The notes beneath the pieces are model-generated. The model did no database searches. It was not told the DNA's origin and saw only the letters and a program-made list of their open reading frames with translations. A stretch of 64,000 nt of DNA from an uncultured Candidatus Saccharibacteria bacterium. GTDB lineage: Bacteria > Patescibacteriota > Minisyncoccia > Phycocordibacterales > XYD1-FULL-46-19. How positions within the stretch are numbered: position 1 is the first letter of the stretch; the number at the start of each line of letters is the position of its first letter. Below, one piece after another: positions 11,379-59,642 of the stretch. Both the position numbers and the translations under genes were made by a program. Location of the stretch: positions 219,757-283,756 of the forward strand of contig CAZXCI010000001.1 in assembly GCA_964639285.1 (NCBI GenBank), in the 5' to 3' direction.

Positions 11379-11451
11379 GTTTCGAGGTTGGATCTGGCCC
11401 CCACTTCGCTAAAGCTATGAGGGGCAGGTATGCGAGATCCAACCTCGAAAG

Positions 11452-13392
11452 CTATGATTTTGTTTCTGCGTCTCTTACATTACCTTCGTCGGAGTCGGAA
11501 GGGCTGGCATTGTCAGCGGGCTTCGCCTCGCTGGAGCCTTCGGCGGAAGCGGGGGCGGATTGGGCCTTCATTAATGCTTCTCCAATTTTTTGCATTTCGG
11601 CAGAGAGGGCGGCGGTCGCTGTTTTAATCGCCTCAATATCCTCGCCATCCTTTACGCCCTTGAGAGCAGTAATTTTGTCTTCGACTCCCCTTTTGATTTC
11701 TTCGGGAACTTTTTTCTCACCTTCGGGTACGCCATCGGCATCTTTCAAACTTTTTTCGGCAGTATAAATTAATTGATCAGCCATGTTGCGAGTTTCAATT
11801 ACCTCGCGCTTTTTCTTGTCTTCTTCGGCGTGAAGTTCGGCATCTTTTTTCATCTTTTCAATATCTTCTTTAGAAAGACTAGTCTTGGCTTCAATGCGAA
11901 TTGATTGTTCTTTGTTTGTCGCTTTATCCTTAGCTTTGACCGACAATATACCGTTGGCATCAAGGTCGAAGGTAACTTCAACCTGAGGCAAACCCCTTGG
12001 TGATGGCGGGATGCCGTCTAAGATGAAGCGGCCAAGTGTTTTGTTATCAGTTACTAGTTCTCGTTCGCCTTGGACGATATGAATTTCAACAGATGTTTGA
12101 TTGTCGGCGGCGGTCGAGAAAATTTGTGACCGCGAGGTAGGGATTGTCGTGTTGCGTTCAATAATTTTTGTAGCAACTCCACCCATTGTTTCGATACCGA
12201 GAGAAAGTGGGGTGACATCGAGGAGCAGGACATCTTTTACGTCTCCGGCAAAAATTCCTCCTTGGATGGCCGCTCCAATAGCTACGACCTCGTCGGGGTT
12301 AATTGAACGGTTTGGCTCTTTGCCGAAGAGGGTTTTTACGGCTTCTTGTATCGCCGGCATACGAGTCTGGCCCCCAACCATGATAATCTCATTAATATCG
12401 CCTACTGCGAGCCCAGAGGCTGTCATAGCACGCTTGGTGATCTCAATCGACTTATCGATAAACTCACGGGCAAGATCCTCTAATGTTGCCCGAGTCATGC
12501 TCATATTGAGGTGGACAGGGCCAGAGGCATCGGAGGTAATAAATGGGATGTTGATCTCGGTTTGATTCATTGTTGAGAGTTCATGTTTGGCTTTCTCGGC
12601 GGCTTCTTTCAAGCGTTGAAGGGCGAGTTCGTCTTTGGTGATATCAATACCATTTTGCTTTTTGAACTCATTACCAATCCAGGCAATGATTTTTTGATCA
12701 ATGTCTTCTCCACCCATATGTGAGTCACCATCGGTAGATTTAACGGAGATACTTTGCTCCTCCTCGCCCCCAATGATTTCGAGAACTGAGACGTCGAAAG
12801 TTCCTCCGCCAAAATCGTAGACAACAACCTTTTCGTCTTTTTTCTTATCAAGACCATAAGCCAAAGCGGCGGCTGTCGGTTCGTTGATAATTCGACGAAC
12901 CTTAAAGCCGGCAATTTCGCCAGCATCTTTTGTTGCCTTGCGTTGAGAGTCGTCGAAGTAGGCGGGCACCGTGATAACAGCCTCTTCAATCTTTTCCCCA
13001 AGCTTGGCCTCAGCATCGTGTTTTAATTTTTGGAGAATTTGAGCCGAGATTTCTTCTGGTCGGAAGTTTTTGTCTCCCATTTTGACCTGGACACCACCGT
13101 CTGATGACTGCTCCATGGTGAAGGAAACAAGCCCCTTATCTTTTTGGATATTGGGATCGTTGAATTTGTGACCCATTAAGCGCTTCACACCAAAAATTGT
13201 GTTCTTTGGGTTAGTGATAGCTTGGCGTTTAGCCAATTGACCCACTAAGCGCTCACCCGCTTTAGAAGTTGCCACAATCGATGGGGTCGTGCGCATACCC
13301 TCGACGTTTTCGACGATACGAGGAGAACCGCCCTCAACAACAGCCATCGCTGAGTTTGCTGTACCTAGATCAATTCCTAAAATTTTTGCCAT
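11452..13392 (-). CDS. dnaK: Chaperone DnaK (Hsp70)
   Basis: [18 protein letters not shown]..., full-length Hsp70. Confidence 0.95.
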
Positions 13393-14050: not shown

Positions 14051-14088
14051 TGTGCGATATCCAATCTCGCACAATAAGGATATTTTAG
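14051..14088. repeat. REP-like palindrome tgtgcga-tatccaatc-tcgcaca plus a conserved tail ataaggatattttag
   Basis: Same unit, with the loop flipped, at 49101-49138; flanks the RAYT gene. Confidence 0.7.
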
Positions 14089-14769
14089 CTATTCTATCCA
14101 CAGATTTGTATAGTTTATAGAGCTGGCTTCTTTTAACCATTCACCTATTTCTTTTTCAAGTTCTTGGGGTGATCTGAGGTAGTCAATTAGTTGATCTTTG
14201 TCTATAATGCTGGCAAAATTGTTGTAGCCTAAGTAATCGCGAAGACTCGACCATTCGTATGATTTTAAGAAGTCTAAAAGACGACTTTTGTCTACAATTT
14301 CTTTTTCTTTCCAGCGGGCTTCAATAAGTTCGGCAGGATTAAAATGGATGTAAAAAGGAATATAATTTAATTGTTCTTCGTTTTCAATTCTAACAAATTT
14401 GTATTTACCTTGGAACAAAGTTCCTGATCTTTCGTTTTTAATATTGAAATAGTGAGTATAGCCAATCCCGATTTTTTTCATAAATTCCGAAGCCCCGTCT
14501 TTGACCAACGGTTTAATTAGGAGGTGGTAATGGTTAGGCATTAAAACAAAAGCCAGGATCTCTACAAGTTTTTCTCGTTGATCTTCTGTTTTTGTGCGAG
14601 ATTGGATATCGCACAAACGATCAATATTTTTTGTTTGATTGACGTCGTTAAAATAATAAAGACAAGCCAAAAAACGACGCCTATCATTGTCGCAACTAAA
14701 TATCTCCCGTTTATCTACCCCGCGGTTGTAGATGTGGTAAATATAGTCCTCCGTCGGCTTTTCTCTCAT
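14089..14769 (-). mobile_element. REP-associated tyrosine transposase (RAYT), an IS200-like Y1 HUH transposase
   Basis: HUH motif LMPNHYHLLI and catalytic Tyr motif FYIHFNP; flanked on both sides by REP palindromes. Confidence 0.75.
14593..14615. repeat. REP palindrome copy (tgtgcga-gattggata-tcgcaca) inside the RAYT coding sequence, translated as ...DRLCDIQSRTK...
   Basis: Identical 7-nt stems and the same 9-nt loop as the uvrC copy. Confidence 0.6.
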
Positions 14770-14800
14770 GTTGTGGATATCTTACCATAAAAACCTTTAT

Positions 14801-14850
14801 TGTGCGATATCCAACCTGCCCGAAATGCCTAGGCAGGCGGGTCTCGCACA
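14801..14850. repeat. REP palindrome (tgtgcga...tcgcaca) carrying a nested 27-nt GC-rich element (cctgcccgaaatgcctaggcaggcggg) in its loop
   Basis: REP stems at 14801-14807 and 14844-14850; the nested element at 14815-14841 belongs to the cctgcc/ggcagg family. Confidence 0.6.
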
Positions 14851-24599: not shown

Positions 24600-25754
24600 T
24601 TAGGCAATCACTCCTCCACCAAGGCAGATATCTTTGTCGTAGAGGACAAGTGATTGACCGGGGACAGCCAATTGGGGCTTCTCGAAAATGATTTGGGCTG
24701 TTCCCTTTTTACTATCGATATTTTTAATCCGGCATTTCTGGAGAGGTTGGCGATAGCGAACCCTAGATTCTAGCTGGCAGCTTTTACCTGCCTGCGCAGG
24801 CAGGGCTGGCAGCTTAAGAGGGTCAGAAATCCAATTGGTTTTTTCTAGCTGAACTTCTAATCTCTCGGCTCTTATCGAATAAGGTTTATCTGAGACAGTA
24901 AGTGTATTCTTTTTCACATCTTTGGCAATAATATAATAAGGCTTCTCATCTGGGGATTTGGTTGTGATTTCGAAGCCATGGCGTTCTCCCAGGGTGAAGA
25001 AGGTTGCGCCATCATGACAGCCAATAACTTTTCCTTGTTCGTCTAAGATGTTTCCTTTTTTTTCTTTTATCTCACGTTTAAGAAAATCTTTAAAATCAAT
25101 CTCACCGACGAAACAGAGTCCTTGGCTATCTTTCTTCAGAGCGGTAGGTAAATTAAATTTTTTCGCTAAAGCGCGGACTTCTGGCTTAGTATATTTACCG
25201 ATAGGAAACAAGATTTTAGGCAATTGTTCAGACTTGAGGTTCCAGAGAAAATAAGTTTGGTCTTTGTTTAGATCTTTTGAAACTTTTAAAACAAGCCCCT
25301 TTCGAGGTGAGACCTCGGGCTCACTTGAGGACTCACCTCGGGAAACCGGTACTTGAGAAATTTGTGAGTAATGCCCCGTCGCAACAAAGTCGGCGCCGTG
25401 GGTCATGGCCCAATCATAGAAGACGCCGAATTTGATGTGTTTGTTGCACATTACATCGGGGTTGGGAGTTCGTCCAGCTTTATATTCAGCGATAAAATAA
25501 TCAACTACTCTCTTCTTGTATTCTCGACTCAAATCTAAAGTTAGGAGGGGGATATCAAGATGAGCTGCAACTCGCCTGGCCCAGCGACGTTCCTCTCTCC
25601 AGCTACAAAAGTCGGCGGATTTACCCTGAGCAAAGTTGAAGGGCTCCCACACCCTAATAAAAACGCCGACAACATCATAACCCGCCTTCTTCAACAAAGC
25701 AGCCGAAACCGAGCTATCGACCCCTCCGCTCATTCCAACAAAAACTTTTTTCAT
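24600..25754 (-). CDS. mnmA: tRNA-specific 2-thiouridylase MnmA
   Basis: PP-loop SGGVDSSV; carries two short GC-rich in-frame insertions (see findings). Confidence 0.85.
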   Translation of the reverse strand: MKKVFVGMSGGVDSSVSAALLKKAGYDVVGVFIRVWEPFNFAQGKSADFCSWREERRWARRVAAHLDIPLLTLDLSREYKKRVVDYFIAEYKAGRTPNPDVMCNKHIKFGVFYDWAMTHGADFVATGHYSQISQVPVSRGESSSEPEVSPRKGLVLKVSKDLNKDQTYFLWNLKSEQLPKILFPIGKYTKPEVRALAKKFNLPTALKKDSQGLCFVGEIDFKDFLKREIKEKKGNILDEQGKVIGCHDGATFFTLGERHGFEITTKSPDEKPYYIIAKDVKKNTLTVSDKPYSIRAERLEVQLEKTNWISDPLKLPALPAQAGKSCQLESRVRYRQPLQKCRIKNIDSKKGTAQIIFEKPQLAVPGQSLVLYDKDICLGGGVIA

Positions 25755-42402: not shown

Positions 42403-42485
42403 AAGTTTTGATTTTAAAGATGTTAAGTAATAATTTAAAATCTTAAGTAATACCGTGCTCGCACTGCGAAGCTTCAGCGAAGCAG

Positions 42486-42559
42486 TGGACCGCACCGGGA
42501 TCGAACCGGTTACCTCCCGCTTGCAAAGCGGGTGCTCTAGCCAGATGAGCTAGCGGCCC
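42486..42559 (-). tRNA. tRNA-Ala (anticodon TGC)
   Basis: Cloverleaf GGGCCGC...CCCGC-TTTGCAA-GCGGG...TTCGATC...GCGGTCC-A; Ala-identity G3:U70 pair present. Confidence 0.85.
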
Positions 42560-42605
42560 AACAATCGTAATTAAACCAAATTTTGGGGTAAAAAGGAAGG
42601 AAAAG

Positions 42606-43151
42606 CTATACCCGCCAATTTTCAATTTGTTCTCTAAGCAACAAAATATTGTCAGTGGATTCTTTAATCATTCCCAAAGATGGGCCGTCGGAAAAACCAA
42701 CATACTCTACACTTTTACCCCTAGTCTTGACATAACGAATTGCGGGGATTAGATCCGTATCAGAACTGACGATAATCGCCGTATCATAATTATTCTCGAC
42801 AGCGCCAATCACAAGATCTATCGCAATCTGAACATCAACACCTTTTTCTCTAATTTTATTATCATAGACAACTCGGCCCCGTTTAATTTCAAACCCCTCG
42901 TTTTCCAAACCGCTCAAAAGCTTCTGTTGGCTTTCTACCATCTTTTGACTTTTATCACTTTGATCATAATTCCTTACAATACCAATATAATAATTTTTAG
43001 ACGCAATTCCCCTTTCCCTGGCCAAAAATTGGCAAAATTTAGAGTAATCAAATCTTGTCCCTTTCGGAATGAGATTACCATGGCGAATTTTTCGGAAAAA
43101 ATTCCCACCGTCAATAAATATTGCTACACACTTTTCTTTTTGATCATCCAT
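42606..43151 (-). CDS. NYN-domain (LabA-like) putative RNase
   Basis: IFIDGGNF...DVQIAIDL...SSDTDLIPAI. Confidence 0.65.
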   Translation of the reverse strand: MDDQKEKCVAIFIDGGNFFRKIRHGNLIPKGTRFDYSKFCQFLARERGIASKNYYIGIVRNYDQSDKSQKMVESQQKLLSGLENEGFEIKRGRVVYDNKIREKGVDVQIAIDLVIGAVENNYDTAIIVSSDTDLIPAIRYVKTRGKSVEYVGFSDGPSLGMIKESTDNILLLREQIENWRV

Positions 43152-43261
43152 AAATCAAAAGTATTATATCGCAAATTTTTGATAACCAAAACCGCCCTTA
43201 CTCTTACGAGCAGGGGCGGTGAGGTTAATGTCTTAAATTATAGACCTATTGTCTGAGAAGT

Positions 43262-43310
43262 CAAGGGGCCTTGCCGGGATCGAACCGGCCACCTTTCCTG
43301 TGCAGTCGTA
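43262..43310 (-). pseudogene. tRNA 3'-half remnant (anticodon TGC region to acceptor 3' end) fused to a copy of the upstream flank of tRNA-Ala(TGC)
   Basis: TGCAC-AGGAA-AGGTG-GCCGG-TTCGATC-CCGGC-AAGGCCC-C parses as tRNA positions 34-73; the adjacent 35 nt at 43311-43345 are nearly identical to 42560-42600. Confidence 0.5.
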
Positions 43311-43367
43311 ATTAAACCAAATTTTGGGGCAAAAAGGAAGGTAGATAAGATTTCTCCTCTGCTAAAC

Positions 43368-43397
43368 TTGACAATTCATGCCATTTAGGTGTATAAT
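43368..43397 (+). promoter_or_regulatory. Consensus sigma70 promoter (TTGACA, 18-nt spacer, TATAAT)
   Basis: Hexamers at 43368-43373 and 43392-43397; followed by a GAGAGGAG Shine-Dalgarno sequence. Confidence 0.55.
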
Positions 43398-43464
43398 AAT
43401 AGAGTATCTGAACACAATAAAATTAAATACACCTAGAAACCACAAAAACGAGAGGAGATGAATA

Positions 43465-43836
43465 ATGACCGAAAAGCTTAAGGACGGGTACATTTTGTAC
43501 CAACCTAAGAACCACAAGGTTCTTGTGGTCGATCATTTTGAGGTTTGGGTGGGACTTCCCCTGGACCTCGAGTTCTACGATGCTAGGGCTCGAAATCCGC
43601 GGTATATTGGTCTAAGGGCCGAGACAGACCAAGCTTATGCATGGGTCGATCCAGGAGCCGTGCCTATTATCAAGGCCGACCCAAAGACCTTACTCTTGGC
43701 TCTCGGAAAGAGGACAAGTAAGAGAATGGAGTTCTACTCCGTTTTCATCCCCTCTCAAGAAGACCCGGTCGCTTTCGCGAAGAGTTTCGCGGAAGAGAAA
43801 CTAAGGAGCCTTTACCGGGGAAGAGGCCATCATTAA
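43465..43836 (+). CDS. Hypothetical protein, 123 aa, GC-richer than its surroundings
   Basis: ORF with a consensus promoter and a strong Shine-Dalgarno sequence; roughly 50% GC in a roughly 40% GC context. Confidence 0.5.
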   Translation: MTEKLKDGYILYQPKNHKVLVVDHFEVWVGLPLDLEFYDARARNPRYIGLRAETDQAYAWVDPGAVPIIKADPKTLLLALGKRTSKRMEFYSVFIPSQEDPVAFAKSFAEEKLRSLYRGRGHH

Positions 43837-43906
43837 GAGCCCCCCCCTATCAAGAATCCCGCAAAGGGCGACATCAATGAAAGATGCCGCCCTTTATTTA
43901 TATTTG

Positions 43907-43979
43907 TGGACCATACCGGAATCGAACCGGTCACCTCTCCCATGCCATGGGAGCGCTCTACCAAATGAGCTAATGGCCC
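43907..43979 (-). tRNA. tRNA-Ala (anticodon GGC)
   Basis: GGGCCAT...CTCCC-ATGGCAT-GGGAG...TTCGATT...ATGGTCC-A; G3:U70 present. Confidence 0.85.
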
Positions 43980-47145: not shown

Positions 47146-48216
47146 TTATACTTTTTTCTGATGTAAAGGTAAAGAGAAGGAAAAAGAGGTTCCTTGATTG
47201 CCCACTGACAAATCTCCACTAGAGCGATTCTCAAACCAGATAGCTCCATGGTGCTTCTCGATGATATCTCGGGCAATGAAGAGGCCCAGGCCAGAGCCAT
47301 CGGGCTCGCTTTTTATCGCATTAGACGCTCTAAAGAATTTTTGGAAGACTTTCTCAGACTCACTCGACGGAATACCGATCCCCGAATCAGTGACAATCAC
47401 TTCAAGAGCCCCCTCGGCACTATTTACTCGCTCATCAGAGATCCTAATCGTGACTTTGCCTCCCTCCGGTGTATATTTAATGGCGTTATCGATAAGGTTC
47501 TCGATGACCATCCGAATTTTATCATCATCTATTTCTACTTTGGGAATAGTATTTTGGGGTCGGAGAAAGAGGAAATTAATCTTCTTTAATGCCGCTTGAC
47601 TAGTAAATTCAAAAATGACATTAGAAATAAGCTTAACTAAGTCAGTTGGCTGGAAGTGATAATCAACCCGCTCGGCATCCATTGAGTCCACTTTGAGCAA
47701 ATCATTGACAATAGAGATTACTCGCTCAGTACTAACCAAACCTTGGAGTAGGTATTTCTTCTGTTCATCTGTCACGGCACCAAGTTGGCCCTTCGCCGCC
47801 ATATCAAGAGTCCACTTAACTGCCGCCAGTGGTGTTCTCAATTGATGAGTCGTTACAGAAATAAATTTTGATTTCGCTTCTTCTAGAGATTGGAGTTTCC
47901 TATTAGCTAAAGTTAGGCCCAATTCTTTAGAATAGAGTTCGCGGTTTTTCTCTTCGAGCTCATTGTTGACCTTCTCTAATTCCTTAATCTGCTGAGTCTT
48001 AAGATTTGCTTCATTAATGAGAATCTTGAGGCGACTTTCTTTGCTTTGAGAAAAACGTCCCAGATAAAAAACCAGTAAGCCAAAAATAATTAGCAAAATC
48101 CAAAAAGCTGGAATAGAGACAAAAGAGAAATCTAATAAAGATTCTACCACCCTTATATTATAGCAACCGCCCGCGTAATTTTCTATGGTAAAACAGTGCA
48201 AAACGGTGAGCTTCAC
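47146..48216 (-). CDS. Sensor histidine kinase (GTG start; overlaps the 3' end of uvrC)
   Basis: H-box HQLRTPLAAVK, HATPase_c motifs (N and G boxes), N-terminal transmembrane helix. Confidence 0.75.
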   Translation of the reverse strand: MKLTVLHCFTIENYAGGCYNIRVVESLLDFSFVSIPAFWILLIIFGLLVFYLGRFSQSKESRLKILINEANLKTQQIKELEKVNNELEEKNRELYSKELGLTLANRKLQSLEEAKSKFISVTTHQLRTPLAAVKWTLDMAAKGQLGAVTDEQKKYLLQGLVSTERVISIVNDLLKVDSMDAERVDYHFQPTDLVKLISNVIFEFTSQAALKKINFLFLRPQNTIPKVEIDDDKIRMVIENLIDNAIKYTPEGGKVTIRISDERVNSAEGALEVIVTDSGIGIPSSESEKVFQKFFRASNAIKSEPDGSGLGLFIARDIIEKHHGAIWFENRSSGDLSVGNQGTSFSFSLPLHQKKV

Positions 48217-49528
48217 TATTGGCCAGAATTATGGCTTTGCGATAATCGCGAATAATCGCCGAGTCACCGATTAATTTCCCCACTTTATGTCTGTCGTTTT
48301 TAGTCACGGCAATGATCTGTGCTCTGTTTAGCGCCGTGCGATTTCTCACAACAGAATCGGCCACATTAACTTGCACCTGATTCCCATCAACCACAATAAC
48401 ATCGGGGTAAGGCCACTCCGTGTGAGCCAAGCGACGTTCGAGAATCTCGCGCAAATTAGCGAGGTCATCAACTTGTTTGGCTTTTGATCCTTTTAGTTTA
48501 AACTTTTTGTATTTACTCTTATCCATTTCGCCGTCTTGCCAGACAACCATCGCCCCCGCAGTATTCGTTCCCGAGAGATGGGCAATGTCATAGGCTTCAA
48601 TCCGAATTGAATGAGTCATAATTTGCGTCCGAGGTCTCTCCTCTGGTGAGTTCGAGGTGAGTCCTCGGGCCCCTTTGAGCAGCGACACATCTCGAATATG
48701 ATTCAAAGCGAAGATTTGATCACGAACTTGCCCCGCTTTTTCGAACTCTCGCTTCTTTGACAAGTTCTTCATCTCTTTTTCCAAACTCTTCAAAATTTCT
48801 TGTTTTTTACCAGAAAAAAGAAGTTTAATGTTTCGCACAATTTTCCGATAATCCGTCTTAGAAATTTCCCCCGTGCAGACACCGGGACAAAGTCCGATCT
48901 GGCGATTGAAACAAGAACGACACCGGTCGCGAGGAGAGACCTCGGCCTGCCCGCAATGCTTTGTAACGCAAGGCAGGCGGGGCTCACTTGAGGACTCACC
49001 TCCCGATCTGCAGGGCAAGCATTTATCCCGAAACGGGAAAATTTTACGAATAATCTTCAGCGCCTCTTTAATTTCACTCGCATAAGGAAACGGCCCAAAT
49101 TGTGCGAGATTGGATATCGCACAATAAGGATATTTTAGTTCTTGGCCACGGACAAGGAGGACACGGGGGAAGTCTTCGTCAGTAATAATGACATACCAAT
49201 AGCTCTTGTCATCTTTTTCTCGCGAATTATATTTGGGTTGATGCTTCTTAATCAATTCGGTCTCCAACAATAGCGCTTCTAAGACAGAATCTGTCTCCTG
49301 CCACTCTACCTTATCCGCAATCTCAACCATACGCCAAATCTTGGGTCCTCTCTTCGCCACGCCGGAGCCTTCGGCGAAGGCTGGGCCAATATCACCAACA
49401 AAATAACTCCGCACTCGATCCTTGAGCGAAGTCGCTTTGCCGACGTAGAGGAGACTTTTCCCCCGTTTGAAGAAATAAACCCCTGGCTTATCTGGCAATT
49501 TATATTTTTTTACATCTTGACTATTCAT
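48158..49528 (-). CDS. uvrC: Excinuclease ABC subunit C, short form lacking the C-terminal (HhH)2 domain and carrying in-frame repeat insertions
   Basis: GIY-YIG motif VYFFKRGKSLLYVGKATSLKDRVRSYF and a C-terminal endonuclease-like domain. Confidence 0.8.
   Translation of the reverse strand: MNSQDVKKYKLPDKPGVYFFKRGKSLLYVGKATSLKDRVRSYFVGDIGPAFAEGSGVAKRGPKIWRMVEIADKVEWQETDSVLEALLLETELIKKHQPKYNSREKDDKSYWYVIITDEDFPRVLLVRGQELKYPYCAISNLAQFGPFPYASEIKEALKIIRKIFPFRDKCLPCRSGGESSSEPRLPCVTKHCGQAEVSPRDRCRSCFNRQIGLCPGVCTGEISKTDYRKIVRNIKLLFSGKKQEILKSLEKEMKNLSKKREFEKAGQVRDQIFALNHIRDVSLLKGARGLTSNSPEERPRTQIMTHSIRIEAYDIAHLSGTNTAGAMVVWQDGEMDKSKYKKFKLKGSKAKQVDDLANLREILERRLAHTEWPYPDVIVVDGNQVQVNVADSVVRNRTALNRAQIIAVTKNDRHKVGKLIGDSAIIRDYRKAIILANSEAHRFALFYHRKLRGRLL
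48931..49003. repeat. Composite GC-rich mini-element inside uvrC: a 36-nt cctgcc...ggcagg element nested within a copy of the 42-nt element also present in mnmA
   Basis: ggctcacttgaggactcacctc is shared with 25321-25342; the 36-nt insert is in-frame (translated RLPCVTKHCGQA). Confidence 0.65.
49101..49138. repeat. REP unit (tgtgcga-gattggata-tcgcaca plus tail ataaggatattttag) inside uvrC, translated in-frame
   Basis: Same unit as the RAYT-flanking REP at 14051-14088, with the loop inverted. Confidence 0.7.
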
Positions 49529-49549: not shown

Positions 49550-52177
49550 TTATTTTTTTCTCAACGCCCTTTTGAGATACTTCGCCGTGAAAGAGCCCGG
49601 GGCGTAGGCCACTTCCTCAGGTGTCCCTTTGGCCACCAAGTCACCGCCCCCAAGACCGCCATCCGGACCCATGTCAATAATATAATCAGCACATTTGATC
49701 ACCTCCATATTGTGCTCGATCACCACCACGGTATTCCCCTTCTCTACTAATTTCTGCAAAATATTATTCAAATTTTTCACATCTTCATAGTGCAGACCAA
49801 TCGTCGGTTCATCGAGAATATAAATTGTTCGCTCGGTATGCGGACGATAAAGTTCGGAAGAGATCTTCACCCGTTGCGCTTCACCGCCCGACAAGTCGGT
49901 CGCTGATTGACCAAGTTCGAGATAACCCAGACCCACATCATTAAGAGTTTTGAGTCGATCATAAATGGCTGGGATATCGTTGAAGAACCCTAAAGCTTCT
50001 TCAATCGTCATATGGAGAATCTGACTAATATTTTCCTTTTTATATTGTACCTCGAGCGTATCTTTCTCATAACGAGTGCCTAAACATAAGTCACAAGGAA
50101 CATAGATGGTTGGCAGGAAATGCATCTCTACCGCCACTTCGCCATTACCCCGACAAGCCTCACAACGCCCGCCCTGCACGTTGAAGGAAAAGCGCGAAGC
50201 CTTCCATCCTCTGGCTCGAGCGAGAGCTGTCTCAGCCAAGAGTTCACGAATGAAGGTGAACGCGCCGGTATAAGTGGCTGGATTCGAGCGTGGCGTTCGA
50301 CCAATCGGTGATTGATCAATCATCACGACGCGACTAAGATATTCGCTCCCTGAGAATTCTCGGCAATTAAATAATTCATTTGTGCGATAACGTCGCTCCA
50401 GTCGCGCCTGCAAATTTTTAAACAAAATTTCGTAAACCAAAGATGATTTACCCGAACCTGATACCCCCGTGATCGCCACAAGTTTCCCTAGAGGAATATC
50501 AACATTAAGATTTTTAATATTGAAGATTTGGCCTCCCCGAATTTTGATTGTCCCCTTATCTTTGCTCCGGCGATTCTCGGGGACGGGGATTTCTTTGTCC
50601 CCGCGCAAATAATCAACAGTTAGAGAATTATGATCATTTTTCTTCGAAGTCAGGAGTTTGTCTGTCTCACCCGCCACCACAATTTCTCCACCATGAACAC
50701 CGGCTCCCGGCCCAATATCCACAAGATAGTCGGAGGCAAAAATTGTGTCTTCGTCATGTTCAACGACGACAATAGAATTACCAAGATCGCGCAATTCGAG
50801 CAAGGTTTTTATCAAGCGATCATTGTCACGGGCATGCAAACCAATTGTCGGCTCATCGAGTACATAGAGAGTCCCCACCAAGCGTGAACCAAGCTGAGAC
50901 GCCAAACGTATACGTTGAGCTTCACCACCAGAGAGAGTGTCCGCCCGACGATTAAGAGCAATATAATCCAAACCAACATCATTTAAGAACTTCAGGCGAG
51001 CGCCAATCTCTTTAGTCAGAACTTCAGAAATCGCTTTATCCTTAGGTGATAATTTAAGAGTGTCAAAAAATTTCTTAGCTTCGCCAATGGATAAAGCGAC
51101 GAGGTCGACAATATTTTCATTAAAAATTTTCACTTCGAGGGCTTCGGGGCGAAGCCTGGCCCCCAAACAAGTCTCACAGACTTCGTTACCCCACATATGC
51201 TTGGTTCCCAAACCATGACAAGCGGGACAAGCCCCATAAGGAGAATTGAAGGAGAAGAGGCGAGGCTCAATCTCGGGGAAAGAGAAACCGTCATGGGGGC
51301 AAGCAAATTTTGACGACAAGAGGGAAGTCTCCCCTCCGATGATAATCTTAATTAAACCGTCAGATTCTTTGAGCGCTCGCTCCACCCCCTCGGTTAAGCG
51401 TTCGTTAGCTGAGTCAAATTTAGCAATGGCAACAATCTTGCTAAGTTCGCCCCGCGTAGCTTTAGCGGAGTGGGGCTTCGCGATAAAATCGGACAAGTTT
51501 ATCTCATCCACTACTACATCAATATCGTGTTTCTTGGTTTTAGTGAGAATTATTCTTTCGCGTAATTTATATTTTTTATTATCAATCAAAACTTCTGAAT
51601 AACCCTTCTCAATCAGATCATAGAGAAGTTGATAATATTCACCTTTTCTCCCTTTCACTACCGGCGCCAGCAATGTGACTGAGGTAAAGGCAGAGAGAGA
51701 TCGTTTTTCGCGTAGCAAAATGGGGTCTCGCGGAGCTTCTTCTATTTTATTTTTTACAAAATTCACAATCTCCTCATGTGAAAGTTTTTCGATCCGTGTT
51801 CCACAGACAGGGCAATAGGGCTGACCAATTCGAGCATATAGCACCCGTAGATAATCATAAATCTCGGTAATAGTAGCAACAGTTGAACGTGGATTATGTG
51901 ATCGTGACTTCTGATCAATGGAGATGGCGGGCGAGAGACCGGTAATCTCATCGACGTCAGGCTTAGGTAATTGCTTCAAAAATTGACGAGCGTAAGCTGA
52001 GAGCGATTCCACATAACGACGTTGGCCCTCGGCAAAAATTGTGTCAAAAGCGAGGCTAGACTTGCCCGAACCCGAAAGACCAGTAAAAACCACCAACTTA
52101 TTGCGTGGTATTTCTAAACTCACATTCTTGAGATTATGAGTCCGAGCCCCCTTAATTTTGATTTTTTGTTCTTCCAC
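49550..52177 (-). CDS. uvrA: Excinuclease ABC subunit A (GTG start)
   Basis: [10 protein letters not shown]...[23 protein letters not shown]; two ABC ATPase modules. Confidence 0.9.
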
Positions 52178-52264
52178 CCCGTTAGAAATAGATCGCGATC
52201 TATGAATAAATAATAATCTCTTTAGACTCTCTCGTTAGCCATCGCGGTTTCTAACGGGATTCAT
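52178..52264 (-). repeat. Inverted-repeat leader element, copy B; abuts the uvrA start codon
   Basis: CCCGTTAGAAATAGATCGCGATC...CGCGGTTTCTAACGGGATTCAT. Confidence 0.7.
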
Positions 52265-57208: not shown

Positions 57209-58475
57209 TGATAATTTTTTCTCTAATGTTATTAGTCAAATGGATTAGAAAATAGAGATTATGAACTGAGGCAAGTGTGCCGGCCAACATTTCCTTAGCG
57301 CGGAAGAGGTGGGCCAAGTAAGCGCGAGTGTAATGCTTACAAACATAACAACCGCAACCTTCCTCAATCGGAGTAAAATCTTCTTTATATTGAGCATTCA
57401 AGATATTTAGACGGCCATTTTTTGTAATTAACGTACCATTCCTAGCCATGCGGGTAGGAGTGACACAATCGAAAGTGTCGGCTCCATTTTTAATCCCCTC
57501 CACGATATCTTCAGATTCGCCAATGCCTAATAAATGTCTTGGTTTGTCTTCGGGCAAAAGAGCGGAGACCCAACCCACCGCTGTCCCCATGTCTTCTTTA
57601 TTAAAGGAGCCCCCAATGCCGAAGCCGTCGAAGTCCATTGCTCCAATCACCCTTGCCGATTCTTCTCGCAAATCTTGATGTCGCCCACCCTGAACAATGC
57701 CAAATAAGGCGGGTTGCGAAGAAGGTAAGAAGTCCCTATCAAAAACGTCTGGCCGAGCATCGCGAGGAGATCCGAGGACTTTTTGAGAGGGAGCTTCTTC
57801 CTTCTGAAGCAAACGTTTATGTTCAGCCAAACTTCTCTCCGCCCAACGGTGAGTTCTCTCCATCGCTTGCTTCTGATAATCATAGTCAGCAGAAGGTGAC
57901 GTGCATTCATCAAAAGCAAAAATAATATCCGCTCCCAAATTATGCTGAATCTGCATCGAACGTTCAGGGGTGAAGCGATGCTCACTCCCATCAATATGTG
58001 ATTTGAAAGTTACCCCTTCCTCATCAATCTTCGCCAGCTTGACAATAGGCTCACGATCGGAGTCTTCTTCGGCCTGCCCGCCTAAGTTTTGCTTAGCAAA
58101 ATTTTGGAGGGCAAATTTAGAAATCCCACCTTCACCGTATGCGGCCCCCAGAGAGAAAACTTGGAAACCGCCAGAGTCAGTCATCATTGGTCCGTGCCAA
58201 TTCATAAAATTATGCAGTCCACCCGCGCGAGCCACCAATTCATCGCCTGGTTGGAGATATAAGTGATAAGTGTTAGCGAGCACCACTTGCGCGCCAAGAT
58301 TATTGACCATCTCGGGCGTCAGAGCTTTAACTGTGGCCTTAGTTCCCACAGCAACAAAAGCCGGGGTCTGGATATCCCCGTGTGCCGTATGGATCACTCC
58401 GGCCCTGCCTGCGCAGGCAGGCCGGCCTAACTCACCTTTCATCTTCTTCTCAATTTTAAAACTAAAATCGCTCAC
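57192..58475 (-). CDS. tgt: Queuine tRNA-ribosyltransferase
   Basis: TPAFVAVGT and the zinc site CGCYVCKHYTRAYLAHLF; a GC-rich palindrome is translated in-frame near the N-terminus. Confidence 0.85.
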   Translation of the reverse strand: MSDFSFKIEKKMKGELGRPACAGRAGVIHTAHGDIQTPAFVAVGTKATVKALTPEMVNNLGAQVVLANTYHLYLQPGDELVARAGGLHNFMNWHGPMMTDSGGFQVFSLGAAYGEGGISKFALQNFAKQNLGGQAEEDSDREPIVKLAKIDEEGVTFKSHIDGSEHRFTPERSMQIQHNLGADIIFAFDECTSPSADYDYQKQAMERTHRWAERSLAEHKRLLQKEEAPSQKVLGSPRDARPDVFDRDFLPSSQPALFGIVQGGRHQDLREESARVIGAMDFDGFGIGGSFNKEDMGTAVGWVSALLPEDKPRHLLGIGESEDIVEGIKNGADTFDCVTPTRMARNGTLITKNGRLNILNAQYKEDFTPIEEGCGCYVCKHYTRAYLAHLFRAKEMLAGTLASVHNLYFLIHLTNNIREKIINGQDF

Positions 58476-58517: not shown

Positions 58518-59519
58518 TTATTTCACTAGGTTCACCGGTGTGCCGGAGGCAAAACTTCTGACATTCTCAAGGGTTGTATTAACGATACGCAGCATAGCCT
58601 CCCAAGTGTTGAAGGCGTTGTGCGGAGTGACAATAACATTGGGCATATCAACCAAAATGTGGTTTTGCAAGACCGTACGGAGATTGTGTTCACCCGAACT
58701 TGGGGTGGTGAGATAAGTAAATTCATCTTTAGTCACCCCCTCTTCTTCTAAGACATCAAGACCAGCTCCCGCCAAGTGTCCATCTTTAAGACTCTTGAGT
58801 AAAGCATCTGTCTCGACTAAAGCCCCGCGAGCCGTATTGATGAGGTAAGCCCCTTTCTTCATCTTGGCCAAAGTGTCAGCGTTGATGAGGTGATGATTCT
58901 CTTCCATATAGGGCACATGTAGAGTCACAATATCAGCTTGCGCCAAGACCTCATCGAAAGTTAGATATTGGTAATCAAATTTCGCCCGATAGGCCTCATC
59001 GGGGAATTTGTCATAAGCGATAACCTTCATGTTGAAGCCTTTAGCAATCTCAATCACGTTCTTGCCAATCTTGCCGGTGCCAATCACACCCAACGTTTTC
59101 CCATTCAGGTCAAAACCGCGCATCCCCTCGAGGCTAAAGCTTCCTGTCTCTCTAATCCGATCATAGCTAGCAAAAATCTTACGTGACAGGGTGAGCATCA
59201 GGGCAAAGGCGTATTCGGCCACCGTCTCCTCACCATAACTCGGGACATTAGCCACCACGACTCCGTGAGCTTTGCAAAGGTCAAGATCAATATGATCAAA
59301 ACCGGTCGAGCGTGTCGAAATCATTTTGAGCTTGGGAAAATGAACGAGAACTTTCTCATTAATTACTGAATTCACAAAAACAGAAAGGATCTCCGCATCA
59401 TTCTCGGTCGGCAGAGTGTCTTCGGTCAAAATTCCATCAAGAAGTTCTGTCTCAGACAAATTTTGTTCCTGCAAATACTCCTTTTCCCATTTTTCTAACT
59501 CAAAAAATATTGTTTTCAT
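58518..59519 (-). CDS. D-isomer-specific 2-hydroxyacid dehydrogenase (D-lactate dehydrogenase-like)
   Basis: GKTLGVIGTGKIG NAD-binding motif, catalytic region AYLINTARGALV...H. Confidence 0.8.
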   Translation of the reverse strand: MKTIFFELEKWEKEYLQEQNLSETELLDGILTEDTLPTENDAEILSVFVNSVINEKVLVHFPKLKMISTRSTGFDHIDLDLCKAHGVVVANVPSYGEETVAEYAFALMLTLSRKIFASYDRIRETGSFSLEGMRGFDLNGKTLGVIGTGKIGKNVIEIAKGFNMKVIAYDKFPDEAYRAKFDYQYLTFDEVLAQADIVTLHVPYMEENHHLINADTLAKMKKGAYLINTARGALVETDALLKSLKDGHLAGAGLDVLEEEGVTKDEFTYLTTPSSGEHNLRTVLQNHILVDMPNVIVTPHNAFNTWEAMLRIVNTTLENVRSFASGTPVNLVK

Positions 59520-59642
59520 CCCGTTAGAAACAGGTCGCGATCTTTAAATCACCACCCGTCATTATTTTATTATTTAATAATATCTTTAACATTTTAACTT
59601 TTATACACCATCCTAGCGATCGCGGTTTCTAACGGGATTCAT
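59520..59642 (-). repeat. Inverted-repeat leader element, copy C; abuts the start codon of the 2-hydroxyacid dehydrogenase gene
   Basis: CCCGTTAGAAACAGGTCGCGATC...GATCGCGGTTTCTAACGGGATTCAT. Confidence 0.7.

Follow-up and report, generated by a model that had tools for sequence, protein, structure and literature searches.

A low-copy hairpin and a Y1 HUH transposase-like gene in a Patescibacterial genome, with hairpin copies inside the gene and inside uvrC

How one short hairpin comes to be shared by the flanks of a transposase-like gene, the reading frame of that gene and the repair gene uvrC was asked for a locus in a 64,000-nucleotide (nt) stretch of contig CAZXCI010000001.1 (assembly GCA_964639285.1, positions 219,757 to 283,756 of the forward strand), deposited as DNA of an uncultured Candidatus Saccharibacteria bacterium; this whole stretch is called the window below. 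The locus holds a small low-copy hairpin and a transposase of the HUH/Y1 kind (IS200/IS605-RAYT, a RAYT being a tyrosine transposase associated with REPs, or repetitive extragenic palindromes) in a Paceibacterota-type bacterium. It is probably best explained by a low-copy, clade-inherited Y1 HUH gene with matching hairpin-bearing ends and with re-copied hairpins that persist in permissive loops, the copy in uvrC being an old insertion. REP/RAYT is the textbook domesticated bacterial transposase, and the questions that it raises are those of the matching of enzyme and hairpin and of the limits of their spread; the present locus offers a compact test case, with one gene, about four hairpins in 64 kilobases (kb) and a genome of roughly the 1-Mb class.

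The hairpin is a 23-mer of the form TGTGCGA-N9-TCGCACA, with a perfect 7-bp stem and a 9-nt loop, and was found four times in the window (Table 1). Downstream of the gene it reads exactly TGTGCGATATCCAATCTCGCACA, and inside the gene and in uvrC (49101-49123) the exact reverse complement is found, with the same stems and the loop GATTGGATA. The fourth copy, upstream of the gene, has the same stems and becomes the exact 23-mer when 27 nt are deleted from it. All of these copies, which had been listed in an earlier note on this DNA, were confirmed in the letters, as was its statement that the loop of the two internal copies is opposite to that of the flank copy at 14051. The hairpin is followed by a 15-nt tail, ATAAGGATATTTTAG, at 14074-14088 and again at 49124-49138 within uvrC, and this tail is common to both copies though their loops are mutually inverted. 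By shuffling (100 shuffles), 0.00 matches were expected for the full 23-mer with up to 3 mismatches, none being found in any shuffle, and 0.12 for the stems alone. Every copy folded as a DNA hairpin (z = -4.4 to -5.1), that at 14051 with -6.8/-7.6 kcal/mol and z of about -4.5. In an exact-pattern scan of 185,579 representative GTDB genomes the 23-mer occurred in only six, with 1-7 copies each; the source genome is not among these representatives, and the counts are those of the window and six related genomes. The tetranucleotide GT[AG]G is absent at the hairpin feet, where TGTGCGA is preceded by ...CCTTAT, ...AATCAATA or ...GTATAC. The 23-mer family is not a high-copy REP.

Table 1. Coordinates of the features in the window, and the hairpin site in uvrC orthologs (L numbers, homologous loci and assemblies; P numbers, UvrC orthologs; aa, amino acids)
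Feature	Position	Strand	Remarks
Y1 HUH tyrosine-transposase-like gene (226 aa; RAYT/TIRYT-like)	14089..14769	-	open reading frame (ORF), profiles, structure model
3'-flank element: hairpin (14051-14073) and tail ATAAGGATATTTTAG	14051..14088	.	abuts the stop codon; like layout in L005, L008 and L013
In-gene 23-mer copy	14593..14615	.	loop inverted relative to 14051; translated LCDIQSRT (residues 53-60)
5'-flank hairpin	14801..14850	.	exact 23-mer; a 27-nt insert breaks it up after ...TATCCAA
Nested GC-rich mini-palindrome CCTGCCCGAAATGCCTAGGCAGGCGGG, 27 nt	14815..14841	.	strain-variable, no target-site duplication
Terminal inverted repeat, left arm	14064..14102	.	hairpin foot, tail, TGTGGATA; overlaps the last codons of the gene
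Terminal inverted repeat, right arm	14772..14810	.	directly upstream of the ATG
uvrC host gene, 456 aa, intact	48158..49528	-	about 50 aa over the shortest orthologs: inserts at four sites
Hairpin and tail in uvrC	49101..49138	.	in-frame (L)KYPYCAISNLAQ, in the stretch between GIY-YIG domain and FGPFP motif
uvrC site, window			CTA AAA TAT CCT TAT TGT GCG ATA TCC AAT CTC GCA CAA
uvrC site, P0122 (closest, 71% identical)			CTA AAA AAC CCT TAT TTT GCG AAA TCC AAC TTG GCA AAG; decayed, same length
uvrC site, P0127			decayed copy, similar to that of P0122
uvrC site, P0137			perfect copy, loop flipped: TGT GCG AGA TTG GAT ATC GCA CAA, peptide CARLDIAQ
uvrC site, P0129			no insert

The protein carries the motifs NHYH (the HUH motif, in NHYHLL), LFQG and YIHFNP (with the catalytic tyrosine) and a WSS tail; NHYH and YIHFNP were invariant in the homolog alignment, with YIHLNP in many homologs. 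The Pfam family Y1_Tnp (PF01797) was matched at E 1.8e-7 over residues 64-142 only. The AlphaFold (AF2) model of the 226-aa protein had a predicted local distance difference test (pLDDT) score of 84, and its top Foldseek match in the PDB was 4ER8, a complex of the E. coli TnpA_REP with a REP hairpin (E 4.6e-6), followed by the IS608 and then the ISDra2 transposases; 4ER8 was also the sole match in a profile search of PDB sequences (E 0.0067). The assignment to the Y1 HUH tyrosine transposases, made earlier from the HUH and YIHFNP motifs, is borne out by the Pfam match, the motifs and the structural match. The C-terminal part of the protein is helical in the AF2 model, and no Pfam match to a C-terminal helix-turn-helix (HTH) domain (Bac_DnaA_C, HTH_23 or HTH_28) was obtained at E ≤0.1. 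More than 3,700 homologs were present in the database, mostly labelled Paceibacterota, Vogelbacteria or Patescibacteria, and only one Y1 gene was found in the window.

For the subclass, the motifs NHYH, LFQG, YIHFNP and WSS and the length of 226 aa were inspected against a published table (Table 1 of PMC6006769) and not with the hidden Markov models of its authors, and they fit the row of TnpA_Y1 subclass 2.1, in which NH[YF]H, FQ, Y[IV]HLNP, an SS-containing tail and a median of 238 aa are given. The name 'TIRYT' was used by Di Nocera 2013 for what corresponds to subclass 2.1 (PMC6006769, PMC3733652). By this inspection the protein looks like a member of subclass 2.1 (TIRYT) and is a poor fit to the canonical REP-associated subclasses. 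With subclass 2.1/TIRYT (PMC3733652, PMC6006769) the locus shares the motif set, a length of about 230 aa, terminal inverted repeats and small families of solo terminal inverted repeats; that subclass was reported without nearby REP-like hairpins and with a C-terminal HTH, whereas here a strong hairpin stands in every inverted end, the gene itself contains a further copy and Pfam finds no HTH. The association with hairpins is thereby extended to a subclass 2.1-like branch, reported as REP-free, and to Patescibacteria.

The Y1 HUH fold and the YxxxNP motif are also those of the E. coli TnpA_REP/RAYT (4ER8; Nunvar 2010; Ton-Hoang 2012; Messing 2012), and the E. coli TnpA_REP REPtron likewise consists of a single-copy gene between matching palindromic hairpins, gene and hairpin co-varying; its vertical inheritance within a clade is probably shared as well. 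The present protein differs from it in being 13% identical, in a 60-aa C-terminal extension and in its Patescibacterial host. The E. coli REP is a bulged, imperfect palindrome present in hundreds of copies, whereas the hairpin of the window is without GT[AG]G, has the perfect stem and loop given above and occurs in a handful of copies. Co-evolution of TnpA_REP with its matching REP has been established experimentally (PMC8266576).

The gene is bracketed by inverted ends of about 50 nt, each holding the same 23-nt hairpin. The matching flank hairpins at 14051 and 14801 had been described earlier, and the arrangement was found again in L005, L008 and L013; in 49 of 61 related loci a hairpin of at least 12 nt was common to the upstream and downstream flanks. 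The arms of the terminal inverted repeat (Table 1) were detected by a repeat finder as an imperfect inverted repeat of 39 nt with 74% complementarity, and each consists of TGTGGATA, an A-rich tail and the hairpin. In relatives the ends have an outer framework, CTTATCCCCACTTTTGTATAC-[23-mer]-ATAAGGGTTTTT, and ends of the form TGTGGATA...AAAACCCTTAT-hairpin also stand alone at other loci in the relatives L010 and L014 (TGTGGA..AAAACCCTTAT-hairpin). The GGGGATAAG of the relatives' outer framework comes near the GGGGWSAS motif of subclass 2.1 without matching it, and is absent from the flanks in the window.

These ends bear on the view that the hairpins are ordinary gene-boundary structures, that is, terminators or elements of messenger RNA stability, and that the matches in uvrC and in the gene were left behind by local duplication and have nothing to do with the Y1 protein. 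Such a role would agree with the low copy number and with the position of the copies directly at the gene ends, and REPs serve elsewhere as terminators or stabilisers (PMC3733652). Against it, the hairpins are not followed by a T-run and were not called in a terminator scan (a terminator role was rejected on this ground), one of them stands upstream of the gene, each of dozens of distant homologs has its own hairpin on both flanks and in the gene, and relatives have solo copies, framed by the same inverted ends, at loci that are unrelated. A further point against it is the paralog of L015, which is 51% identical, sits at the same locus and has a different hairpin core. The gene-boundary view is disfavoured and is judged very improbable.

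The chromosomal site was compared likewise. The order rpsI - gene - grpE - dnaK was kept in five related genomes with proteins 63-77% identical; synteny of the whole family was rejected, the order holding in the close clade only. At the same rpsI/grpE site, L015 (240-1520, genome JBAZMZ01) has its 51%-identical Y1 gene in inverted orientation, with a different hairpin core, CCGAAGTTCGACTTCGATA, inside the same outer framework. It would seem that either hairpin cores can be swapped while the framework of the ends is conserved or one gene cassette took the place of another.

In favour of an active, autonomous insertion sequence (IS) of the IS200/IS605 type, in which the gene and two subterminal hairpins transpose as a whole, are the inverted ends, whose subterminal hairpins stand on one and the same strand, the unrelated contexts of the distant homologs and the divergent, inverted L015 copy at the rpsI/grpE site. 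The window, against this, holds one copy, identical extra copies were not seen, and the chromosomal site is conserved between genomes with proteins of about 76% identity. The tyrosine motif is moreover YxxxNP (class 2) and not the Y---Q of IS200 (Table 1 of PMC6006769), and the protein has 226 aa with a C-terminal extension. With the peel-and-paste elements of the IS200/IS605 group (IS608, ISDra2) the locus shares subterminal hairpins, which here would likewise be recognised on one strand, and insertion free of a target-site duplication (the 27-nt insert has none); it differs from them in lacking tnpB and a multi-copy IS and in its tyrosine motif of class 2, a TnpA of about 150 aa with Y---Q and near-identical copies being found there and YIHFNP, 226 aa and one copy here. 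The active-IS view is disfavoured as well, and we give it hardly any credence.

The in-gene copy was compared with those of a distant sample of 80 loci at 36-63% identity, of which 65 were analysable for own-flank matching, by motif-anchored k-mer matching with an exact stretch of at least 12 nt in the 80-nt linker upstream of the HUH motif. The hairpin of the locus's own flank (at least 12 and up to 27 nt exact) was found in this linker at 27 of the 65 loci (42%), against 82 of 4,160 mismatched locus pairs (2%). The flank hairpins of these distant loci are unrelated in sequence to that of the window (e.g. GAAGTCGGACTTC, GAGGTTGAACCTC, TGTGGACTTGCGATGTCCACA and ATGTTGAGAGTTCAACTCTCAACAT). The best in-gene matches lay in 25 of 36 cases within a 36-nt interval, -101 to -66 nt from the HUH codon; the binomial value for this clustering is 1e-23, which is not a true probability since the loci are phylogenetically related. 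Smaller, secondary clusters were found at +214 to +246 and +388 to +440 nt, which in the model are the loop after the tyrosine helix and the C-terminal tail. The hairpin centre stood in one common reading phase at 18 of the 27 loci and in all eight GARGT-type hairpins, and this shared phase produces the seemingly conserved peptide 'x-E-V-x-L/P' of the family. Seven hairpin codons were identical in the window, L005 and L013, wobble bases included, against 46-56% codon identity for identical residues elsewhere in these three genes. In the AF2 model, residues 56-60 (pLDDT <50) form a coil between the helix 27-39 and the strand 69-76.

The peptide LCDIQSRT occupies a variable linker that is present in all aligned homologs, with no extra residues at the hairpin. 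In L008 and L021 the linker codons have drifted (CDIQAQT and CDIKFET) and the hairpin is lost, with the length unchanged and the ORF intact. A simple insertion was therefore rejected as the origin of the in-gene copy, the hairpin-less orthologs L008 and L021 being equal in length there. Of the two in-frame copies noted earlier, that in uvrC is a genuine insertion, and that in the Y1 gene adds no residues.

The same data may be read as selection on the in-gene hairpin as a cis-regulatory site, to which the protein would bind, on the non-template DNA strand or the messenger RNA, and so limit its own expression; such selection would make the site co-vary with the flank hairpins. Consistent with this, most carriers share the linker position and the reading phase, conservation reaches the wobble level in three lineages, own and cross matches stand at 42% and 2%, and stems of at least 7 bp were found in 37% of the linkers against 6.8% of control windows. 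The linker copies of L053 and L057, which keep the stems of the flanks and differ in the loop, are as expected if the stems are selected. On the other side, only about 40-50% of the sampled genes carry the site, L008 and L021 have lost it by decay and kept an intact gene, the copies at two other permissive positions suggest tolerance and not one designed site, and no consistent rule of orientation was found. To our knowledge, HUH enzymes bind single-stranded DNA and not RNA, which counts against self-regulation at the messenger RNA. We regard selection for self-regulation as doubtful, although a binding site for self-regulation by the protein is plausible for the in-gene copy as such. With a protein's own hairpin in the reading frame in about 40% of the sampled relatives, co-evolution and possible self-regulation are testable with a few oligonucleotides and one protein.

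In-frame REPs within tnpA_REP genes, lying between HuH and Tyr, have been called unique to subclass 2.4 (Quentin et al., PMC6006769). That subclass (group 4 of Bertels; PMC6006769) is alike in having copies of its own REP in tnpA, with the frame kept, in a peripheral variable region. It is found in Cyanobacteria and Bacteroidetes, with GTAG 'double-foot' REPs and the motifs NH[IFV]H, WQ and YIxNNP; the window differs from it in its motifs, in its main in-gene site at 66-101 nt upstream of HuH and in its phylum. The in-gene hairpin is thus not without precedent, although that precedent differs from it in subclass, site and phyla. In the literature no paper was found that deals with RAYT/REP in Patescibacteria or describes such a gene with a hairpin in it upstream of HuH.

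In uvrC, the translation through the hairpin copy reads ...LKYPYCAISNLAQFGPF..., and the comparison of orthologs that the earlier note had proposed was run at the DNA level for the codons that follow ...GAA (codon E) and precede TTT GGG CCG TTT (FGPF), with the results in Table 1. UvrC orthologs span 400-496 aa, the short ones being without any inserts. The hairpin insert was found at the identical site in four orthologs, in decayed form in P0122, P0124 and P0127; it is absent in P0129 and in the orthologs of about 400 aa, and the DNA of the copy in the window matches the 3'-flank element exactly, so that the copy was confirmed as an insertion. On sequence grounds, the uvrC insertion is real, old in the clade, situated in a variable linker and, by its frame, translated through. 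The identity of the window copy with the 3'-flank element includes a lineage-specific TAT variant of the tail, P0122 having the consensus tail, and speaks for a recent re-copying and against simple descent.

Earlier work (Di Nocera et al., PMC3733652) has described REPs within coding genes, above all those for excinuclease and other repair functions. The intragenic REPs of that study (PMC3733652) are likewise in-frame palindromes enriched in replication and repair genes, including excinuclease ABC; here uvrC is hit, and uvrA has another palindrome. The presence of REPs within coding sequence, pointed out in the earlier note, is thus no novelty in principle, having been published already for excinuclease and for tnpA_REP genes (PMC3733652, PMC6006769).

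The loop of the hairpin was found in either orientation. Both flank loops are opposite in L008 to those of the window, L005 and L013, the surrounding sequence being unmoved; the loop of the uvrC copy is opposite in the window and L101; and two copies in L012 have the same left flank with loops in opposite orientation. Read on the sense strand, loops opposite to the flanks were found in the in-gene copies of the window, L005 and L013 and in the uvrC copies of the window and the L008 genome. With a loop of 9 nt and stems that are a perfect inverted repeat, a flip alters three codons and never the frame. It likely arises by strand switching or recombination between the stems, in analogy to the established processes of template switching and inverted-repeat recombination, with enzyme-mediated excision and re-insertion as the alternative.

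In the explanation that we prefer, the protein would bind the folded hairpin on single-stranded DNA, at a replication fork or in a transcription bubble, and would cut and rejoin beside it, both steps being modelled on TnpA_REP and the IS608 TnpA. It would act mainly in cis on its own locus, and hairpin copies would in consequence build up in and around the gene. The copies would survive only where the protein tolerates them, in the low-confidence loop upstream of HUH, the loop after the tyrosine helix and the C-terminal tail. Re-copying, whether by the enzyme or through template switching or gene conversion among neighbouring copies, would keep them alike, and the lineage-specific 3'-flank tail of the uvrC copy would be due to such re-copying. 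The symmetric 7-bp stems would let the 9-nt loop invert in place.

Several results weigh against this explanation. The protein scored 44.9 bits with the NCBIfam profile REP_Tyr_transpos (NF047646), below its cut-off of 80; with the GT[AG]G foot absent and four copies in 64 kb (1-7 in relatives), the canonical REP/RAYT system that had been proposed for this locus is not upheld. The pairing of protein and hairpin is a putative one, drawn from sequence. The in-gene copy is dispensable, having decayed in L008 and L021 with an intact ORF, and its conserved phase better fits one ancestral insertion with concerted evolution than repeated random insertion. A rule that the intragenic loop is always opposite to the flanks was rejected as not general, every combination being found across the 27 distant loci. 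The rpsI-gene-grpE context was found in 0 of 79 more distant loci, and a promoter role was dropped after a scan upstream of the ATG gave nothing convincing, a relation to an operator not being established either. Polymorphism of presence and absence was found only for the unrelated GC-rich insert and in no case for the 23-mer, and ongoing mobilisation of the 23-mer is not demonstrated, the hairpins being few and the GTAG guide absent.

A bolder account, which we hold possible and rather unlikely, takes the hairpin in the linker upstream of HUH as a built-in, co-evolving coding part of a large Patescibacterial branch of these genes, serving as an autoregulatory site or as a protected master copy; a loop flip would toggle the substrate strand, and further mini-palindromes of these genomes, without target-site duplications, would be mobile at present and would colonise uvrC, uvrA, mnmA and dnaK in frame. 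If this were true, the in-gene copy would be a self-recognition site or a source for re-templating of flanking and dispersed copies.

Rickettsia palindromic elements are reportedly in-frame palindromic repeats of about 100-150 nt in permissive loops. The elements of the window differ from these in being 23-39 nt long, in lying in a very small genome and in the inversion of the loop in place.

The nested GC-rich element described earlier in the right-flank hairpin was confirmed at 14815-14841, the hairpin with this insert (14801-14850) folding as a nested hairpin with -15.7 kcal/mol. Among near-identical assemblies, the empty site with the intact 23-mer was found in L001, L003 and L004 and the insert in L002 and the window; L001, L003 and L004 are three independent assemblies, and the boundaries of the insert are unambiguous (first 60 nt). 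By this comparison the 27-nt element looks like a currently mobile mini-element. It was found in none of the other related loci compared. A related 37-nt copy lies at 48946-48982 in uvrC, nested in another GC-rich palindrome encoding RGESSSEPEVSPR. To judge by the polymorphic 27-nt insert and by the palindromes that lie in frame in repair and housekeeping genes, tiny genomes appear to tolerate mini mobile hairpins and to be still reshaped by them.

Other palindromic elements were found by pattern searches. A census of GC-rich islands, at 42.6% GC, gave 50 matches, many of them ordinary, and was uninformative. The GC-rich palindrome at 48925-49002 in uvrC, GAGGAGAGACCTCGG...GCTCACTTGAGGACTCACCTC, is in frame (peptide GGESSSEP...EVSPRD), and a 36-37-nt element, CCTGCCCG...GGCAGGCGGGG, is nested within it, also in frame. 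The uvrC of P0126 has the outer palindrome without the nested element, and that of P0128 has the nested element inverted and at another site (ACPQCFATQGRRG). A further copy of the GAGGWGWGWCYTC inverted pair at uvrC 48631-48666 is translated RGLTSNSPEERPR, and peptides related to it, here and at another site, were found in the closest UvrC orthologs only (P0123-P0138). The GC-rich sequence CTTCGCC.CGC.GGAGCCTTCGGCG occurs, 85% identical, at 49352-49385 (N-terminal region of uvrC) and at 11521-11554 (C-terminus of dnaK); the former reads PAFAEGSGVAK, and these 11 aa are inserted in only 4 of the 120 UvrC orthologs.

The palindrome encoding RGESSSEPEVSPR also occurs in frame at 25303-25340 (VSRGESSSEPEVSPRKG) in ORF 24600-25754 (minus strand), which we take, from its translation only, to be mnmA. 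Near the C-terminus of the same ORF lies the GC-rich palindrome CCTGCCTGCGCAGGCAGG (24787-24809), with a similar one at 58399-58421. A 27-nt palindrome, CCCCACT.CGCTAAAGCTA.G.GGGG, was found at 51449-51475 in uvrA (ORF 49550-52177, minus strand), where it reads PHSAKATRG in frame, and at 11399-11425, just 3' of dnaK. The palindrome ATAGATCGCGATCTAT stands in a 36-nt segment, 83% identical between 52172-52207 (directly upstream of uvrA) and 59514-59549; these segments may be a shared operator. Three repeats with CCGG(G/A)ATCGAACCGG, of tRNA-like look by motif alone, were found at 42485-43960, with near-identical 39-nt spacers at 42562-42600 and 43303-43341.

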